From the NCBI GenBank assembly GCA_951812955.1, contig OX638340.1:3584001-3648000 (forward strand): a DNA stretch of 64,000 bases, read 5' to 3'. Shown one piece after another: positions 5,292 to 37,864 of the stretch. The notes beneath the pieces are model-generated. The model made no database searches. It had not been told where the DNA came from and saw nothing but the letters and a program-made list of their open reading frames with translations. Made by a program: the position numbers and the translations under genes. The stretch's first letter is position 1. Each line of letters begins with the position of its first letter. The DNA comes from an uncultured Gemmatimonadota bacterium. GTDB taxonomy: Bacteria; JAAXHH01.

Positions 5292-6275
5292 ATGAGTCGA
5301 GGCAAACCCGAATCGGTATCCCGGAGGTACGATGTCCCCGACGCCAGCGTCCGGTCCGGTATCCGCGATGCCCTGGAGCGCTTCGGTCCATCTGAGCACA
5401 GGACCGAAGCCTGGTGCGACTGGGTGCTGGTATTCGAAGATGAAAAGGAAAAGCTGGTCCTCAAGCAGTATCGGAAAGGTACCCTGATGATCCAGGGTAG
5501 GGGGGAACACCTGCTCCGGGTGATCCTGCACGTTCTTTCACCCTTTCTGCCAAATACGGGTGAATCGGAAGACTCCGGAGATGGCTCCGGCGGCGCAATG
5601 GCTCGCGGCGGTGAGAAGACCCGAAAGCTTCCTCTTCCGCACATCGGCACGGACGAGTCCGGTAAGGGCGACTATTTCGGCCCGCTGGTGGTGGGCGGCG
5701 TCCTGGTGGAGACGGGATCCCGGGAGAAACTGTCTGCCCTGGGTGTCCGGGACTCCAAGAAACTGGGCGACGGGAAGTGCCGCGAACTGGCGGCCGGGAT
5801 CCGGCGTATCTGTGTCGGAAAGTACCGCGAGATAATCATTCCACCGGAGCGATACAACACGCTGTACGAGGAGTTTCGCCGGGAAGGCAGGAACCTCAAC
5901 CATCTCCTGGCCTGGGCCCATGCCCGCGCCATCGAATCTTTGCTGGAGTGCGCCGCCTGCCGGCTGGCCGTGGCGGACAAGTTCGGCAACGAGCACTACA
6001 TCCGGTCCCGTCTCATGAACAAGGGCCGGGAGATCGAGCTGATCCAGGAACATCGGGGAGAGCGTTACCTGGCCGTCGCCGCGGCGTCGATTCTCGCCCG
6101 CGACCGATTCCTGGAGCACATGGAAAGACTGTCCGGAGAGGCCGGCCTGCCGCTGCCCAAGGGTGCCGGACCGCAGGTCGTAACTGCAGCCAGGAAATTC
6201 GTCGAACGAAATGGCGTGGATAAACTGCCCGCCGTGGCCAAGATGCACTACAAGACCACGGCCCAGGTTGTGTAA
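5292..6275 (+). CDS. rnhC: Ribonuclease HIII
   Basis: Catalytic motif GTDESGKGDYFGPLVVGGV (DESGKGD, RNase HIII type) preceded by a ~110-aa N-terminal substrate-binding domain. 327 aa. Confidence 0.7.
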   Translation: MSRGKPESVSRRYDVPDASVRSGIRDALERFGPSEHRTEAWCDWVLVFEDEKEKLVLKQYRKGTLMIQGRGEHLLRVILHVLSPFLPNTGESEDSGDGSGGAMARGGEKTRKLPLPHIGTDESGKGDYFGPLVVGGVLVETGSREKLSALGVRDSKKLGDGKCRELAAGIRRICVGKYREIIIPPERYNTLYEEFRREGRNLNHLLAWAHARAIESLLECAACRLAVADKFGNEHYIRSRLMNKGREIELIQEHRGERYLAVAAASILARDRFLEHMERLSGEAGLPLPKGAGPQVVTAARKFVERNGVDKLPAVAKMHYKTTAQVV

Positions 6276-6302
6276 ACCCGGTTATTTAGTTAAAATCAGA
6301 CA

Positions 6303-6338
6303 CAGATGTATCGTCGTTCGAAACAGATGTATCGTCGT
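6303..6338 (+). promoter_or_regulatory. Pair of 15-bp direct repeats (CAGATGTATCGTCGT) at 21-bp spacing upstream of abfA
   Basis: Exact repeats at 6303-6317 and 6324-6338 in the 110-bp intergenic region before the arabinofuranosidase gene. Candidate regulator binding site. Confidence 0.25.
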
Positions 6339-6384
6339 GTTTTGGAATGAACCGCTGGATATGTGAACCTGCTGTACAGGGAGC

Positions 6385-31400: not shown

Positions 31401-33069
31401 ACAGAAGCAGACGCACCAGTACGTGCTGTCGGAATTCGGGTCGACAGAGGCCGAAGACGAGGACATCACCATCGTGCCCAGGTCGTGGTACGCCGGCACC
31501 GCGCCGGGGGTGAATACCTACATCAAGGTCGAGCATGACGCCGCGGACAGTTCCGCCCGGTCCACCTACGCGTCGGCCATCCTGGGCCTGCTACCGGACG
31601 AGCGGACGGTCAGCGGCCTGGACCGTATCCTGACGGCGGGAAGGTGGTTCGAGGGGGATGAAAGGGACGTGTGCATCCTTCCCGTTGAGATGGCGCAGCT
31701 GCTCGGGATGTCGGAAGAGGACGCAGGTCAAAAGGAGATCAGGATCTTCGGCAAACCCTTTAAGGTCATTGGCCTATTCGACTCGGCCGCAATGGACAGG
31801 ATCACCGACCTGGACGACGAGCCGCTCACCCCCGTGGATTACACGGCGACGGGGCGCGACCTGATCACAGAACTTGCCATGATGGATTACGATGAGGAAC
31901 CGGTGCAAATGGCCCGATTCGAACACCTCCCGGCCGCGAATCTGATCCTTGCGCCCCATGCCTACGTAAACGACGTCGGGGGAACGCTCCGGTCCGTCGC
32001 GGTCCGTTTCCCCTCGGATGATACCGCCCTCGACCGGATCGAACGCTTCATGCAGCGGCTGGGGATACCCGTGGTGGCCTCCGTGGGCGGAGAGGTCGCC
32101 GTGTACAGCGCCATGGCGCTGAGTTCACTTTCGGGCCTGGGCAACCTGTTCATCCCCATGGTCGTGGCCGCGCTGATCATCCTGAACACCATGATGAACG
32201 CCGTCTATGAACGCTTCAGCGAAATCGGCGTATACAGCGCCGTGGGCCTGGCGCCGGCGCACATTGGCGCGTTGTTCATGGCCGAAGCCGCCATGTACGC
32301 CGTGATCGGCGGCATGTCCGGCTACCTCATCGGGCAGACCGTTGCCCGCGGCATCACGGAATACGAGATGCTTGCGGGGTTGACGCTGAACTATTCCTCC
32401 CTGTCCGCGGTGGCCTCGACGGCCATGGTCATGGTGGTGGTCATGCTCTCGACGATTTATCCAGCGCGCAAGGCCTCCCAGATGGCCGTTCCGGACGTCA
32501 ACAGGCAGTGGTCCTTCCCCGATCCCGAAGGCGACGACTGGCGTTTCGAGTTTCCCTTTACCATCAGCCGCACGGAGACGCTCGGCCTGTGTGCTTATCT
32601 GACCCGGTTCTTCGAGTCCTACGGCGAGAGTACGCTGGGGAGTTTCATGACGGACGAGGTGGGCCTGACGGGCAGGAATGGCGGCGCGACCGGCGCAGAC
32701 GCGGACTCCGCATCGGGCGCGGCTACTGATTCCGCAGCCGGCGGGAACTTCGAATCGGCAGACGCCGCGGCCACGTACGAAATCACCATGAAGACTTGGC
32801 TGGCCCCTTACGACACGGGAGTCAGCCAGCAGGTGACCCTTCACGCGTCGCCCGCCGAGGACGAACACGACCTGTACGCCGTGTGGGTGCACATCTATCG
32901 CCTGAGCGGCGACGTGGATTCATGGCAACGACTCAACCGCCGCTTCCTGAACGTGCTACGCAAGCAGTTCCTGGTCTGGCGCACCGTGGACCAGGAGGTC
33001 AAAACGGTCTACGCGGGTGAGGGGCGGGAGATGATTGCATCCGTAGCGGGAGACGCGGTCGAAGCTTGA
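28474..33069 (+). CDS. Giant lipoprotein fusing a degenerate M28-peptidase/PA-like domain to a MacB/FtsX-type permease
   Basis: Lipobox LIVLCIISAC. M28-like block ESYYDSIS...GANQASGVAALLEMAR...ATSGHF in which Zn-ligand positions are substituted. MacB-type TM1 (NMRKRKARTLLTCATLVLLVFTVL). C-terminal FtsX domain (...MMNAVYERFSEIGVYSAVGLA...STIYPARKASQMAVPDVNR). Asp/Ala/Gly-rich C-terminal tail. Confidence 0.65.
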   Translation: MRHMRTIPVLLAGLIVLCIISACQTTGVRERVAFQAEPVGEGQVTAVVDSTRIRQTITDLVSFGSRVAGYPGATEAAHYLAGRMDEIGLEDVEMEEFVASVPLDEGGELVILDATTFATPSIPLHAVWPNLVRTSTTPPAGITGMLHYVGAGEWTDFNGIDPTGAVFLMDFNSGVNWQRAAMLGAGAVIFAEPDHTTRVDGEEKYLQVPVNFPRFWMEKEWAGPLVEYLEVNGPFTVRTKGRMTWKRLPAYNVMGKITGTHPVLKEEAIVLESYYDSISPVPAVSPGANQASGVAALLEMARYFAAHPPARTVYFLATSGHFLSLSGVNDFTNRHTRKTPYFAEQIEEPINMKLFAGIDLSSARDQIGVYYAGILFAGNSFEKQRFFTPFGRTFMGYAQEVIRRGVFPSDALMNVITPSQGIQSTEFFPAGNIALDAELVFWTGFPALSFATVFDVREYVDTPLDDMERVNIRNVYTQAVLLTELFGRAVNDPMLFPDFKMQLDDRFVRGRIRVVEFDPREDYIPSKPKPGAVVRFRRYNKSISGVKNEIFVVADSMGVAESTELEAGRTYPTEGYVMDPDTGDIIYAPDRGPYGEGAYPLEITMDWVDKEKPTVVFRSDATNLYDLVDPRFLTRLNEAVLLDESGNPPLEWGMTFQEGGWTTGFSYEEDTAVLFTPPESRFKVTMSSGLFGRRLILTNAGEDHPEGIGFESGIGAIPLTSYQVARDMWHLDEARIAALKSVGVSNVRLDEFHQEAGRLLDLAESARQDLQWDRFIKYARAAWGYESRAYPDATGTANDVVRGVLFYMVLVIPFAYALERLVFGFANVYKRIAMSFAIFLAAYGVLRFTHPAFQITTAPDIVLLAFITFVLAAVVIWLISQRFSQTMREFRQHTHSVQATDVRRSSALATAFALGIGNMRKRKARTLLTCATLVLLVFTVLSFTSVQTYLRIQKVSTDAESVYTGFLVRNPNWAPLQKQTHQYVLSEFGSTEAEDEDITIVPRSWYAGTAPGVNTYIKVEHDAADSSARSTYASAILGLLPDERTVSGLDRILTAGRWFEGDERDVCILPVEMAQLLGMSEEDAGQKEIRIFGKPFKVIGLFDSAAMDRITDLDDEPLTPVDYTATGRDLITELAMMDYDEEPVQMARFEHLPAANLILAPHAYVNDVGGTLRSVAVRFPSDDTALDRIERFMQRLGIPVVASVGGEVAVYSAMALSSLSGLGNLFIPMVVAALIILNTMMNAVYERFSEIGVYSAVGLAPAHIGALFMAEAAMYAVIGGMSGYLIGQTVARGITEYEMLAGLTLNYSSLSAVASTAMVMVVVMLSTIYPARKASQMAVPDVNRQWSFPDPEGDDWRFEFPFTISRTETLGLCAYLTRFFESYGESTLGSFMTDEVGLTGRNGGATGADADSASGAATDSAAGGNFESADAAATYEITMKTWLAPYDTGVSQQVTLHASPAEDEHDLYAVWVHIYRLSGDVDSWQRLNRRFLNVLRKQFLVWRTVDQEVKTVYAGEGREMIASVAGDAVEA

Positions 33070-33182
33070 GCGTTCCCCGGTCCCGCCGGGCTCGCAAACG
33101 CGCCAGAGCGCTCCCCGTGGCTGCGGCGGTAGAGATATTGGTTTGAGCGCGGTCCTGATTGTCAGGCTGAAGGAGGAATTCC

Positions 33183-33653
33183 ATGGAAGGCGGCGGCAGC
33201 GAAGGCTCCTGGCTCAACACGCTCATGGGACAGAACGTTCGGGTTATGACGCCGGGATCCGCCACGGAGGATCGCGTGACGGTCATCGAGGCCGTCGAGC
33301 CGCCCCACAGCTCGCCGCCCGTCTTCACCCGCCACGCCTTCATCGAGATGTTCCTGGTCGTCAGAGGTGCCCTGACGTTTCAGTTTCTACACGAAAGCGC
33401 CTTTGTGATCGAAGCTGGCCAGATGGTGACCGTACCCGGCTACCGGCCCCATTCCTTCTGGAACGAGGGGGACGACCCGGCGGCGGTCATGCTGATCTGC
33501 ACGCCCGCGGGGTTGGACCGGTTCTTCGAGGCTTCCGATCGGCTGCTTCGGCGCATGCCGCCGGACACGACCGATCCCGATGAGTTGAAAGCGGAGATGG
33601 CACGCCTTCGGAAGGAGTTCGGGCTGGAACACGTGGCGCCGGCGCCGCGGTGA
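33183..33653 (+). CDS. Cupin domain protein
   Basis: Small beta-barrel cupin-like core (FIEMFLVVRGALTFQF...GQMVTVPGYRPHSFWN). 156 aa. Confidence 0.5.
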   Translation: MEGGGSEGSWLNTLMGQNVRVMTPGSATEDRVTVIEAVEPPHSSPPVFTRHAFIEMFLVVRGALTFQFLHESAFVIEAGQMVTVPGYRPHSFWNEGDDPAAVMLICTPAGLDRFFEASDRLLRRMPPDTTDPDELKAEMARLRKEFGLEHVAPAPR

Positions 33654-33968
33654 GGCTTGATTGTCTTAAGGAGGTAACGCTGTCGTTCAGATATACGTAA
33701 CTTCCCGAAAAGAACGTTACGGTGTCGACGAAACACCGTGGAATAGCACACGATTGAAGGATTTGATGTATCCTATAAACTGAGTTGACCCCGTTTAGTA
33801 CGTATGAATTTTTGTACAACGAGGAGTGTTCGACACAACTCCAAGAAATGTGAATCTGTCTACAAACTGGTAATCTTGGTTTTATGTGCACCGGGTAAAG
33901 TCAGTCCGCGTGGGTATGACAGCGTTTATCGGAAAGCTCGGTCGTATGAGGATCAAGGAGTTGGCGTG

Positions 33969-34394
33969 ATGGCGAGAGTCCGAAAGTCAACTGCAATTGA
34001 ACGATTGCAGAGGTTGGTTGATGAGGCTTCAGAGCTGGATATGGAGGATGATAGCTCTCAGGAAGTTCAAAAATGGATACAGGACGTTTATACCGCTTTT
34101 ATCAACATATTCGGTGAGGATAGTTCTCAGTTTTCACGACTTCCGCAAAGTCACAAAACAACCCCAAGTGGGGTTCGTGAATACCTGAGATCAATGGTTT
34201 CCTGCGTCGCGTCTAGTCTCGATGAGATCAAGTACTTTCGGGAGGATGAAACAGAAACTGTGAAACAACCCTCAGAACAGGGTGACTTAAAAGCACCAGA
34301 TAAGGATTGTTACGACCAGGGATCGGCGACAAAAAAGTCTTTGTCGTTCATGGTCACGACGAGGCCGTCCTGCAGGCGGTTGCGAGATTTCTAG
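33969..34394 (+). CDS. Hypothetical acidic protein (possibly the N-terminal part of a frameshifted TIR-like gene)
   Basis: AAGGAG 33955-33960, ATG 33969. Lower-GC island. Its 3' end overlaps the next ORF by 88 nt, and an A6 run at 34323-34328 separates the two frames. Confidence 0.35.
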   Translation: MARVRKSTAIERLQRLVDEASELDMEDDSSQEVQKWIQDVYTAFINIFGEDSSQFSRLPQSHKTTPSGVREYLRSMVSCVASSLDEIKYFREDETETVKQPSEQGDLKAPDKDCYDQGSATKKSLSFMVTTRPSCRRLRDF

Positions 34395-34768
34395 AAAAGC
34401 TGAAACTCGAACCAGTAATCCTGCACGAACAGGCGAATCAAGGCCGCACGATCATAGAGAAATTTGAGGATCATTCGGATGCGAGTTTTGCCGTGGTTCT
34501 GCTGACACCTGACGACATAGGCGCGGCCGTTACGGATAAGGCCGATCTACGGCACCGAGCTCGTCAGAACGTAATTCTCGAACTCGGATTCTTCATTGGG
34601 AAGTTGGGTCGCAACAGGGTCTGTGCTCTGAAATCGCGTTGTGTCGAAAATCCGTCGGACGTCGATGGGATGGTCTATATCAACCTCGACGAGCCAGATG
34701 CATGGAAGACCGGACTCGTGCGGGAGTTAATGGCAGCTGGTTTCGCCATCGACGCTAACTGGGTTTAG
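34307..34768 (+). CDS. TIR-like (COG4271/CAP12-type) nucleotide-binding domain protein
   Basis: KKVFVVHGHDEAVLQAVARFLEKLKLEPVIL...FAVVLLTPDDIG...RARQNVILELGFFIGKLGRNRV matches the TIR-like COG4271 pattern. Only TTG 34307 is available as a start in this frame. Confidence 0.5.
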   Translation: MLRPGIGDKKVFVVHGHDEAVLQAVARFLEKLKLEPVILHEQANQGRTIIEKFEDHSDASFAVVLLTPDDIGAAVTDKADLRHRARQNVILELGFFIGKLGRNRVCALKSRCVENPSDVDGMVYINLDEPDAWKTGLVRELMAAGFAIDANWV

Positions 34769-34773
34769 CAGCC

Positions 34774-35079
34774 ATGAACGCACAGTTGTCGATTTCCAAA
34801 ACCGAATTGTCAGCCTATTGTAAAAATCATGGCATCCGACGATTAGCAATTTTCGGATCGGTGCTCCGGCCAGATTTTGGCCCGGAGAGCGATATCGACG
34901 TACTGGTCGAGTTCGCACCGAGTCACACTCCCGGTCTGCTGGGCATGGCCGGATTGGAGATTGAACTATCCGAATTGTTTGGCGGTCGGAAGGTGGACCT
35001 GCGGACTCCTGAGGAATTGAGTCGTTATTTTCGACAGAAGGTCATTGACACGGCAGAAGTTCTATATGTGCAGGGATGA
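34774..35079 (+). CDS. mntA: MntA-type nucleotidyltransferase (antitoxin of HepT/MNT toxin-antitoxin pairs)
   Basis: Minimal nucleotidyltransferase motif FGSVLRPDFGPESDIDVLVEF. 101 aa. Confidence 0.7.
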   Translation: MNAQLSISKTELSAYCKNHGIRRLAIFGSVLRPDFGPESDIDVLVEFAPSHTPGLLGMAGLEIELSELFGGRKVDLRTPEELSRYFRQKVIDTAEVLYVQG

Positions 35080-35182
35080 CGAAATCCCATTACAGCACAT
35101 GTTGGACGCCGAGCGGGAGGCAGTGTGTTTTTCACGAGGACACAGTTGGTTGCAGCCGCTAAGTCAAGCCTACCATATCGCG
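35066..35182 (+). pseudogene. hepT: HepT (DUF86) toxin remnant, truncated after 38 codons
   Basis: MCRDDEIPLQHMLDAEREAVCFSRGHSW... matches the HepT N-terminal block, then TAG at 35180-35182. Overlaps the mntA 3' end by 14 nt, as in intact MNT-HepT pairs. Confidence 0.45.
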
Positions 35183-35550
35183 CGTGAATAGTAATCCAGG
35201 ATGGTGGTGTCCGAAGTCACGAGCAGGCATTTGTTCAATTTGGCCGTGGCCACGATCGTGCGGTCGACAGGATCCCGGTGATCCCAGTCCAGTTCGAGAT
35301 TCCCAATCCATGTCCGCACGTCCACTGGACGTACTTCAATCCGTTCGGTCCGTTCCAGATTTTATGCGAAGTCCTGAATGGACAGGGGCAACACAAGATC
35401 GGCCTTTTTCACCCTAACGCCGATCTCCCAGATCGAGATCGAACTGATGCACACGCGGTCGGCTTGTGTAATCGTCTGGTCGTCGATTTTGGACAGGCGT
35501 TCGGGATCCAGTGTCCAGAAAACAAGCGCGGACGTATCCAGTACGACCAT
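35161..35550 (-). pseudogene. VapC-like PIN-domain toxin interrupted by an in-frame TAA
   Basis: MVVLDTSALV...SIWEIGVRVKK...DFA, then TAA (35362-35364), then the same frame continues ...DHRDPVDRTIVATAKLNKCLLVTSDTTILDYYSRAIW* carrying the remaining PIN acidic residues. Confidence 0.6.
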
Positions 35551-35780
35551 TACGTTTCATCCCATTCGTCGATTGTCGGTGTGTCGATGTCTCCATGATA
35601 GACGATCTTTCCCCGCAGTCCATCGAAGATCCTGTCAACCGATTGCTTTGGCTTTATGGGTTTTACACTGAGAACTGGACTCCGGTTATGCGTTACGATC
35701 AGATCCTCGCCCGATTCCTCGATTTCTCGAAATACCCGAAGCATATTGGCCTTCAGCTTGCTCTTCGATTTGAACAGCAT
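35550..35780 (-). CDS. Phd/YefM-family antitoxin
   Basis: KLKANMLRVFREIEESGEDLIVTHNRSPVLSVKP matches the Phd/YefM N-terminal fold pattern. The stop shares a nucleotide with the vapC start (TGATG). Confidence 0.55.
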   Translation of the reverse strand: MLFKSKSKLKANMLRVFREIEESGEDLIVTHNRSPVLSVKPIKPKQSVDRIFDGLRGKIVYHGDIDTPTIDEWDET

Positions 35781-35950
35781 ATGGACTCCAGTCTGTTTAG
35801 TAAAAGACTATGGGCATGACCCTGGTTATATTCGAAGGATTTCCTATGAACCGTCAAGGATTTATCTCATTCTCGGCAACTTAGAAGTCGGATTCCGTGC
35901 GACTATTCCGACTGTATAGGTATGATGTTCAATTCAATGTGTAAGACAGG

Positions 35951-35979
35951 TTGACAATCGACGTCCCGACGTCTAATAT
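35951..35979 (+). promoter_or_regulatory. Near-consensus sigma70-type promoter (TTGACA-N17-TAATAT) with tandem GACGTC palindromes in the spacer; predicted leaderless start for the MTase gene
   Basis: TTGACA 35951-35956, spacer atcGACGTCccGACGTC, TAATAT 35974-35979, ATG 35986. No RBS. Confidence 0.4.
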
Positions 35980-35985
35980 TAAAAT

Positions 35986-37122
35986 ATGGCCACTAACACC
36001 GAAAGATACGCTCCTGGTCGAGTACGAGATGCGATAATCCGGGTGATGAGACTAACGACAGAAGGTTTGTCTGCTAAACAGATCGCAGCGAGAGTTGCAA
36101 AGATAGAGGGCCACATGCCTGAGTCCTCGATCAGGTCTTATCTTCGTCTGAACACTCCAGAGACATTTGTTCGTGAAAGGAGGGGGGTATACCGCCTTAA
36201 GGTAGATCATGACAGCAGTCTGCAACGAACGATGTTCAGGAGTCCACCTTGGCAGGAACCCTTCAAGTTTGGATCGGCTACATTGTTTCATAGTGAATGT
36301 TTGGATTGGCTGGACGCAAGAGATGACCAATCAATCCACGCGATAGTTACCGATCCACCTTACGGTCTGCAGGAATACACAGCGAAAGAGCAGACGAAAC
36401 TCCGAAATAGGAAGGGGGGGATCTGGAGGATTCCTCCTGCATTTGATGGCCACGTTCGTTCGCCGTTACCAAGATTCACTACTTTAACCGATGAACAAAA
36501 ACTTTATCTTCGGGAGTTTTTCTATATCTGGTCTCGTCTACTGATCCCCAAGTTGGTACCTGGCGCCAACGTGGTCGTTGCCTCCAATCCACTACTCTCC
36601 CACATTGTCGCCGGCGCTATAGCGGATTCGGGGCTTGAAAGACGCGGCGACATCGTCAGGCTTGTTATGACTATGCGTGGCGGTGATCGGCCAAAAGCGG
36701 CACATGATGAATTCAAGGACGTCAGTGTGCTCCCCAGATCAATGTGGGAGCCATGGCTGATATTCCGTAGGCCTGTGGAGGGAAGAGTACAGGACAACCT
36801 CAGAAAATGGAAAACGGGAGGGTTTCGACGGCCGACTGGACTCAAGCCATTCGGAGATGTTATTCAATCTTCCCCGACCAGAAAAAATGAGAAGGCGATA
36901 GCACCTCACCCCAGCCTTAAGCCACAATCCTTCTTACGACGCCTCGTGAGGGGTGTTCTTCCACTAGGTGAGGGTATAGTTGTCGATCCCTTTGCCGGCG
37001 CTGGCTCTACTCTCGCGGCCGCTGAAGCAGTTGGGTACGAGTCAATCGGAATAGAAAAGGATTCTCTGTACTTCAATATGGCCAAGGAAGCACTACAGCC
37101 ACTAGCCGAGCTCGAAGTGTAG
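35986..37122 (+). CDS. Beta-class DNA methyltransferase (N6A/N4C type) with N-terminal HTH domain
   Basis: Motif IV TDPPYG upstream of motif I VVDPFAGAGST (beta-class order). N-terminal ~80 aa HTH-like (LSAKQIAARVAKIEGHMPESSIRSYL). Lower-GC island. Confidence 0.8.
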   Translation: MATNTERYAPGRVRDAIIRVMRLTTEGLSAKQIAARVAKIEGHMPESSIRSYLRLNTPETFVRERRGVYRLKVDHDSSLQRTMFRSPPWQEPFKFGSATLFHSECLDWLDARDDQSIHAIVTDPPYGLQEYTAKEQTKLRNRKGGIWRIPPAFDGHVRSPLPRFTTLTDEQKLYLREFFYIWSRLLIPKLVPGANVVVASNPLLSHIVAGAIADSGLERRGDIVRLVMTMRGGDRPKAAHDEFKDVSVLPRSMWEPWLIFRRPVEGRVQDNLRKWKTGGFRRPTGLKPFGDVIQSSPTRKNEKAIAPHPSLKPQSFLRRLVRGVLPLGEGIVVDPFAGAGSTLAAAEAVGYESIGIEKDSLYFNMAKEALQPLAELEV

Positions 37123-37141
37123 GGACTGAAGGAATCCTCAA

Positions 37142-37672
37142 TTACCTGTCTAGGTAAATCCAGTTCTCGCGAAGTTTACTCACGCCAAAGCGGTCAAGTG
37201 TGGCAGTTCGTGTGCCGAGTTCCCCTCTCGGATTGCGTCTAAAGTCTTCGATGGTTACCCTAGATAGGTAGACTTCCCTAAACGTCATTGGAAGTCTTGA
37301 TGAAGAGGGTTCGGTTTTGTTATCGACCTCGTATACAAATACACACATCCACTGGTCGCGCGCGCCATGTGTATCGACCGCACCGCCTTTTTTCTTCGTG
37401 GTTTTGATTTCAAGACCCTGATCTCCCGACTTAACGGAGTTTTCTGCGTAAACTCCCTGAACGAGAAGGTCAGGATGGCCATTGAAGTAGTTGTTTTCAG
37501 TAAGCACCCTTGAATGTTTAGCCAGACTGGCCGTCAGCATGTCCGATAGCACACCAGACATGATAGCGGGTCTCAACATATCGTCAAGCCGTTCCAGTCC
37601 GCGGTCTACCAGATGAGAATTGACATCGTGGAAGAAATCATAAACGTCCTGCATTGCCGACTCGAAATCCAT
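37142..37672 (-). CDS. Putative type II restriction endonuclease (PD-(D/E)xK)
   Basis: Convergent with the MTase, 19 bp tail-to-tail. GHPDLLVQGVYAENSVKSGDQGLEIKT gives PD...EIK spacing. Low GC with a very AT-rich upstream region. Confidence 0.45.
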   Translation of the reverse strand: MDFESAMQDVYDFFHDVNSHLVDRGLERLDDMLRPAIMSGVLSDMLTASLAKHSRVLTENNYFNGHPDLLVQGVYAENSVKSGDQGLEIKTTKKKGGAVDTHGARDQWMCVFVYEVDNKTEPSSSRLPMTFREVYLSRVTIEDFRRNPRGELGTRTATLDRFGVSKLRENWIYLDR

Positions 37673-37864
37673 AATGCGGAGCTGATATGGTAAAGTCGAG
37701 TCAGGATTGAATGATTCTCTTACTACGACATTTCTGGATTGTTTGATCCGTTCGTCTCCTTCATGTTATCTGAATGCATGTTTCAACAAAATGTGATTTA
37801 CTGTGAATTTGTAAACCACTACCTACAATATCATGACCTAGAATCTCATGAAAGTAAAATCAAT

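Follow-up and report, generated by a model that had tools for sequence, protein, structure and literature searches.

A VapC-type PIN toxin gene interrupted by a nonsense codon beside an intact antitoxin gene in an uncultured Gemmatimonadota lineage

Introduction

The VapBC-type toxin–antitoxin (TA) modules that come closest to the locus described here are those of Shigella flexneri (VapBC, PDB 3tnd) and Klebsiella (7by2), together with the FitAB pair of Neisseria (2h1c). These modules are bicistronic, with the antitoxin gene placed first and overlapping the start of the toxin gene, and their toxins are PIN-domain proteins (Pfam PF01850) of ~126 aa with four acidic residues; an intact toxin is a defining feature of a working module, and a functional VapC is expected to be an Mg2+-dependent RNase whose toxicity the antitoxin neutralises. 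The antitoxins in the Shigella VapBC and FitA examples are of the AbrB or MetJ/RHH types. A further kind of pair that is relevant to this locus is MNT–HEPN, in which the gene for an MNT-type nucleotidyltransferase, the antitoxin, precedes an overlapping gene for a HEPN toxin.

How such modules are lost from chromosomes has been documented in Photorhabdus, where pseudogenisation had struck the toxin alone in 185 TA copies and both genes in 186, with only the antitoxin defective in eight (Belot et al., Mol Biol Evol 2026, PMC13617665). Toxin-first loss was concentrated there in high-turnover spots and is a documented common route of chromosomal TA loss (PMC13617665). The MAGs considered here may come from marine sponges, to judge by how the isolates are named; we searched the literature on TA systems of sponge Gemmatimonadota and found nothing specific.

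Here we describe a locus in a 64,000-nucleotide stretch of DNA from an uncultured Gemmatimonadota bacterium (the window), which is very probably a type II TA module of the VapBC type in which a nonsense mutation at codon 63 has pseudogenised the toxin gene, in a process of toxin-first erosion. We first set out the architecture of the module and its closest relatives, and then discuss the age of the lesion, the island in which it lies and the other readings that the stop codon might be given.

Architecture of the module

The module occupies the minus strand and consists of the following features.

35550..35780, minus strand: intact antitoxin gene, Phd/YefM-like VapB, 76 aa, full length relative to its orthologues
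35362..35550, minus strand: 5' part of the vapC pseudogene, 62 codons and the premature stop, retaining D5 and E42
35362..35364, minus strand: premature TAA, codon 63 of vapC, ancestrally Glu (GAA/GAG)
35170..35361, minus strand: 3' part of the vapC pseudogene, 63 in-frame PIN codons and the original TAG (35170-35172), retaining D96 and D114

The N-terminal part of the vapC frame reads MVVLDTSALVFWTLDPERL... up to the TAA at 35362-35364, past which the frame goes on as NLERTERIEVRPVDVRTWIGNLELDWDHRDPVDRTIVATAKLNKCLLVTSDTTILDYYSRAIW until the TAG, the 63 downstream codons running from NLERTERIEVRPVDVRTW to LVTSDTTILDYYSRAIW. Each half is recognised separately by PF01850 (cut-off 23.6 bits), the N-terminal half at profile positions 1-47 with 25.0 bits and the C-terminal half at positions 61-115 with 27.8 bits, while the two joined with the stop masked reach 56.1 bits (E 7e-15) over positions 1-115 of 120. 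The joined sequence is 76-79% identical to intact homologues across all 126 positions, and its 3' part aligns to intact orthologues without a gap. All four acidic active-site positions (D5, E42, D96 and D114) are kept, in columns that are invariant or nearly so among the homologues. The initial annotation had described a PIN protein that starts MVVLDTSALV and stops after 62 codons, with the remainder of the domain in the same frame beyond the stop, and this layout was reproduced, the C-terminal half passing the family profile by itself; the four acidic positions were likewise confirmed, whereas the domain length of 127 aa given there should read 126 aa. No uninterrupted ORF for the whole PIN domain is found in the window or in ten other contigs, all of which carry TAA at codon 63.

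In public collections the 62-aa N-terminal product appears as a 'hypothetical protein' (NCBI MCY4545320.1) and is also recorded in JGI, Logan and ENA, and some assemblies call a 51-aa, GTG-started C-terminal piece, also as a 'hypothetical protein' (MCY4545319.1). NCBIfam gave no match above cut-off for either the toxin or the antitoxin protein, and the VapBC proteins themselves match no PADLOC model. An 11-nt inverted repeat (35396-35426, 91% complementary, with a 9-nt loop) falls within the PIN codons for EIGVRVKKADL, ~30 nt 5' of the premature stop, and is probably incidental.

The antitoxin gene was said from the start to be intact, and it is indeed an ORF of full length. Its product ends in ...DEWDET, followed by a TAA that shares one A with the ATG of the toxin gene (TAATG, a 1-nt overlap). 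Orthologous antitoxins stop with TGA at the corresponding residue, and most relatives have a TGATG overlap; this was the form first reported for the window, so that the overlap stands and its stated sequence does not. The position of the antitoxin immediately upstream of the toxin, in the same operon, is kept in 28 of 31 related loci (L012-L042).

Unlike the antitoxins of Shigella VapBC and FitAB, that of the window appears to have an N-terminal domain of the Phd/YefM type. Its own match to Pfam PF02604 (PhdYeFM_antitox) is 13.9 bits (E 0.046), which lies below the curated cut-off of 29.8, but the profile was matched by all 15 aligned antitoxin orthologues at E <= 1 (best E 8.3e-8), and an identical protein is named 'prevent-host-death protein' by NCBI (MCY4545321.1). 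A PDB profile search with the antitoxin alignment returned nothing significant, with VapB46 at E 0.79. Scans of the operon region for promoters, terminators and inverted repeats revealed neither a promoter nor an operator that would be convincing on the minus strand ahead of the antitoxin gene, with a promoter scan that may not cover those of the phylum. A tblastn search of the 64-kb window gave no second PIN or antitoxin copy that the orphan antitoxin could serve.

Modelled fold and the truncated product

A PDB sequence-profile search with the PIN alignment gave no match, and a model of an intact orthologue was compared by fold instead. The AlphaFold model of this orthologue (P0001, 79% identical to the joined window sequence) has a pLDDT of 95.5 and a pTM of 0.88, and its best matches in the PDB are all VapC/FitB-type toxins (TM 0.65-0.75, probability 1.00), among them Shigella VapC (3tnd_A), FitB (2h1c_A), a Klebsiella protein (7by2_B) and Rickettsia VapC2 (3zvk). 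The modelled alpha/beta/alpha fold is nearest to the solved VapC toxins, from which the protein is far removed in sequence, with 16-22% identity in the structural alignments.

Residue 63 lies within helix 58-67 of the model, so that the truncated product would comprise strands 1-2, helices 1-3 and half of helix 4. Three of the five modelled strands (71-74, 110-111 and 124-125) would be missing from it, as would two of the four catalytic acids (D96 and D114); with these elements gone, the fold predicts that the 62-aa product cannot form a PIN active site and is non-toxic. In this respect the locus departs from the described VapBC modules, since with the toxin ORF broken at codon 63 an intact toxin is missing.

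Codon 63 in other assemblies and in sister species

An exact look-up found the identical antitoxin on 22 contigs, of which ten were listed and compared with the window: two from NCBI (GCA_001753035.1 and GCA_026713285.1), four from ENA, three from JGI metagenomes and one from Logan (SRR8092709). The gene called after the antitoxin encodes the 62-aa product in all ten, and over the 614-nt module none of them differs from the window at 35362-35364. The TAA at codon 63 is present in the window and at L001-L011, and the stop is found in three haplotypes (the window, L001, and L002-L010). Since L002-L010 are identical across the module and some may be re-assemblies of related samples, the independent observations number fewer than eleven. 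The repaired vapC sequence was also searched against ~5.8 billion protein clusters. Almost all of the 682 homologues so obtained have 126-131 aa; the closest is only 79% identical, and no intact allele of this species was found above that level in the collection. Taken across these assemblies, the nonsense mutation is evidently genuine and present in every sampled genome of the species-level lineage.

Outside the species, loci in which the pair is flanked, as in the window, by a cupin gene and a 384-aa gene (orf384) were found in MAG chromosomes of ~3.7 Mb, namely L012 (OZ253560.1), L013 (OZ252103.1), L014 (OZ245326.1), L016 and L018. The methyltransferase, orf176, MNT and TIR genes recur at these sister loci in varying combinations, and the PIN genes there, which from this shared setting are evidently positional orthologues, are uninterrupted ORFs of 126 aa, those of L016 and L018 having lost some catalytic residues. 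The initial annotation had proposed a comparison of this sort for finding the ancestral sense codon, and the comparison recovered Glu, which is encoded by GAA in L013 and L014 and by GAG in L012, the closest relatives; the change in the window is thus GAA to TAA, a single G-to-T substitution. More widely, codon 63 is a sense codon in 118 of 118 homologues and encodes Asp or Glu in 101 of them, within the consensus FAENLERT, and a stop at this codon is absent from all orthologues of other species that were examined (31 loci).

The PIN family has, as judged from its catalytic residues and ends, lost function independently in other species. D114N is found in both L016 and L032, E42V together with D114N in L018 and D96H in L038, while the gene in L041 is a 5'-truncated remnant without its first 37 codons (the PIN match lies at 6001-6378 in each of these five loci). 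In L018 the antitoxin gene is absent as well, and only 110 nt separate the start of the methyltransferase gene from that of the PIN gene.

Age of the lesion and constraint on the gene

The dN/dS of the window gene against intact orthologues is 0.19-0.21 (dS ~0.6), compared with 0.19-0.23 between intact genes, and this holds for both halves. Among 67 highly conserved columns four are changed in the window (A23D, K46R, L74R and P109L), a number that is reached by 16% of the intact homologues. Together these values indicate that purifying selection acted along nearly the whole branch and that the stop came late; with neither excess divergence nor a rise in dN/dS the pseudogene must be young, and the two tests are unable to date it further.

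Variation within the species offers a second view. Five of 380 nt segregate in the pseudogene and three of 205 in the intergenic spacer, against seven of 2205 in the intact antitoxin, MNT, methyltransferase and orf176 genes (Fisher p = 0.022 for the excess in the pseudogene); the excess depends on five sites, and p becomes 0.17 if the TIR gene, itself variable, is pooled with the intact neighbours. Three of the five pseudogene sites are non-synonymous. Two of them occur in L001, namely R123C and D5N, by which a catalytic Asp is lost, and the third, R79W, occurs in L002-L011. These small numbers point in the direction expected of a gene that is no longer protected. The antitoxin gene has one synonymous site in 231 nt, too few to inform on selection. 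The description of the inactivation as 'very recent' holds in part: it is late relative to the split from the sister species, but it is fixed in every sampled genome and some haplotypes have already acquired secondary lesions.

The surrounding island and the MNT–HEPN pair

The module lies in a low-GC island with the following features, to which the vapC pseudogene and its antitoxin gene are to be added.

~33650..37850, no strand assigned: low-GC island, ~46-53% GC against ~63% in the flanks, between the cupin gene and the 384-aa gene
33804-34768, plus strand: TIR-domain defence gene (PADLOC PDC-S35, E 3.6e-72; Pfam CAP12-PCTIR_TIR)
34774..35079, plus strand: intact MNT-type nucleotidyltransferase gene, antitoxin of an MNT–HEPN pair (Pfam PF18765/PF01909; PADLOC PDC-S09, E 1.3e-24), convergent with the VapBC pair
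35045..35191, plus strand: HEPN toxin remnant, a 48-aa ORF with ~30 homologous codons left, running into the 3' end of the vapC pseudogene
35986-37122: type II DNA methyltransferase gene
37142-37672, minus strand: orf176, 176 aa, convergent with the methyltransferase gene and 19 nt from its end

Among assemblies the island differs by 0-1% and the flanking core genes by 2-5%, a near-identity that points, from the sequences compared, to recent horizontal exchange or a sweep. Identity to L013 and L014 is 96-97% for the methyltransferase protein, 85-92% for the flanking core proteins and 76-77% for the PIN protein, and these unequal values indicate that the island is a recently exchanged mosaic. 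Genomes L012-L018 have the same insertion site with variable content, and neither flanking direct repeats nor a recombinase was evident at the island boundaries.

The MNT protein is 78-87% identical to its orthologues in L012, L014 and L018. As in described MNT–HEPN pairs, an MNT gene followed by an overlapping HEPN gene is the arrangement in the orthologous islands; the window differs in that its HEPN gene is reduced to those ~30 homologous codons, without the catalytic motif. DNA alignment against L014 and L018 shows that ~310 nt have been deleted, including the region of the RX4-6H motif. The HEPN protein of L014 has its full 120 aa with RNRLVH, and only its residues 1-27 are matched by tblastn in the window; Pfam gave no match for the 48-aa remnant ORF. 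With HEPN deleted beside an intact MNT gene, and vapC stopped beside an intact antitoxin gene, each of the two pairs in the island has lost its toxin and kept its antitoxin. A decaying defence/TA island with a second dead toxin is the context that was absent from the initial annotation.

Several other observations were made in and around the island. The HEPN gene of L012 carries a different deletion, which is internal. The TIR gene is split into ORFs of 196 and 153 aa by a 1-nt deletion (~34330/34331) that occurs in the window only (0/10 other assemblies) and could reflect either a mistake in the assembly or a frameshift peculiar to this strain; the complete TIR domain is still encoded in the 153-aa piece. 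The orf176 product has no Pfam or PADLOC match, is 90-94% conserved in L014, L016 and L018, and may be a restriction partner or a controller. Next to the island, a hypervariable stretch (~32400-33700) lies between the end of a 1531-aa peptidase_M28/FtsX gene and the cupin gene; here the 33000 bin has differences at 117-151 of 353 alignment columns and the 33600 bin at 48 of 300, compared with ~1-6% in the other flanking bins.

Other readings of the stop codon

The initial annotation had considered, besides an inactivation, that the TAA might be a sequencing error or, less likely, a recoding event, and neither survived the comparison. Were the stop an error of sequencing or assembly, the toxin gene would really be intact, and for this there is the general prior that single-base errors occur, and also the 1-nt deletion in the TIR gene (~34331), which is unique to the window and suggests that this assembly may contain errors. 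The same TAA is, however, carried by ten other contigs that come from different archives and samples and were produced by different groups and pipelines, in three haplotypes; the 62-aa product is on record from NCBI, JGI, Logan and ENA, and the protein collection holds no intact allele above 79% identity, which leaves an error with practically no probability. It is also extremely unlikely that the stop is a programmed or leaky one, at which a little full-length toxin is still made, by low-level readthrough, through a suppressor tRNA or through codon reassignment, and toxin dosage is thereby lowered. As this reading would have it, the PIN frame past the stop is open and well conserved and has both of its catalytic acids, but the same would be seen in a young pseudogene. 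An alternative code or recoding is rejected, since TAA is an ordinary stop here, which closes the antitoxin gene itself, where orthologues use TGA, and 12 of the window's 45 long non-overlapping ORFs; none of the 31 loci of other species shares the stop at codon 63, and the 91 nt around and after it fold no better than shuffles (z 0.22). No tRNA gene or Rfam element was found within the window, and the D5N, R79W and R123C changes in some haplotypes speak for a frame that has lost its protection.

The gene might instead be split and not dead, with the 62-aa N-terminal or the 51-aa C-terminal fragment (from the GTG at 35325) keeping a function, for example if a fragment binds the antitoxin as a co-repressor or if the halves reassemble into an active PIN domain. 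Both pieces are predicted by gene callers in some assemblies, the N-terminal one is translationally coupled to the antitoxin, and the module is nearly invariant among assemblies, although the whole island is likewise so. Against this, the stop interrupts helix 58-67 halfway along, within one compact domain, no clear ribosome-binding site, judged by eye, precedes the GTG (...GGATTGAAGTACGTCCA GTG), and the catalytic D5 has been lost in L001. Polymorphism in the pseudogene (1.3%) is close to that of the intergenic spacer (1.5%) and ~4x that of the intact neighbours, and no orthologue is divided in such a manner, all of which makes a functional split gene very unlikely. A different proposal concerns the surviving partner: the orphan antitoxin, perhaps together with a co-translated 62-aa PIN fragment, may be under selection as an anti-addiction or immunity factor against incoming VapC toxins. 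The related toxins would in that case arrive on mobile elements at an exchange-prone defence hotspot, and the toxin-dead, antitoxin-alive state, which occurs twice in the island (VapB without VapC, MNT without HEPN), would be an adaptive end point and not transient decay. We regard such selection as improbable.

Toxin-first erosion and its meaning

The reading we prefer is the nonsense pseudogene, and the first claim made for this locus, that a VapC-type PIN toxin has been inactivated by one nonsense codon beside an intact antitoxin, is supported by the TAA at codon 63 and the ancestral Glu. A G-to-T change turned the Glu codon (GAA) of a 126-aa PIN toxin into TAA, and translation, coupled to that of the antitoxin through the TAATG overlap, would now end after 62 residues. 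The 63 codons downstream would be an untranslated remnant that has had too little time to decay. The antitoxin would now be an orphan, which may persist from the short time elapsed, from repression of its promoter or from neutralising related VapC toxins, the last of these, an anti-addiction role, being speculative. A horizontally exchanged low-GC defence/TA island would on this account be eroding toxin-first, as the deletion of HEPN beside an intact MNT gene also suggests.

In its outcome the locus resembles the toxin-first erosion described in Photorhabdus, in that the toxin is pseudogenised, the antitoxin is intact, the setting is a high-turnover chromosomal spot and related genomes show independent losses. 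It differs in that the organisms here are uncultured Gemmatimonadota represented by MAGs and known from sequence, and in that a single island has had two toxins killed, one by a nonsense codon and the other by a deletion.

The locus is an ordinary fixed nonsense pseudogene, and its decay follows the usual route of such modules. MCY4545320.1 (62 aa) and MCY4545319.1 (51 aa) belong together as the two halves of a single vapC pseudogene, and their annotation should say so; beyond annotation the finding is of little importance. It does provide a clean natural case of toxin-first TA erosion in an uncultured lineage, with independent losses of function in the same toxin family among sister species. 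For studies of TA turnover it may be of use as a modest worked example from a defence-island hotspot, and it may supply an orphan antitoxin for work on cross-neutralisation.
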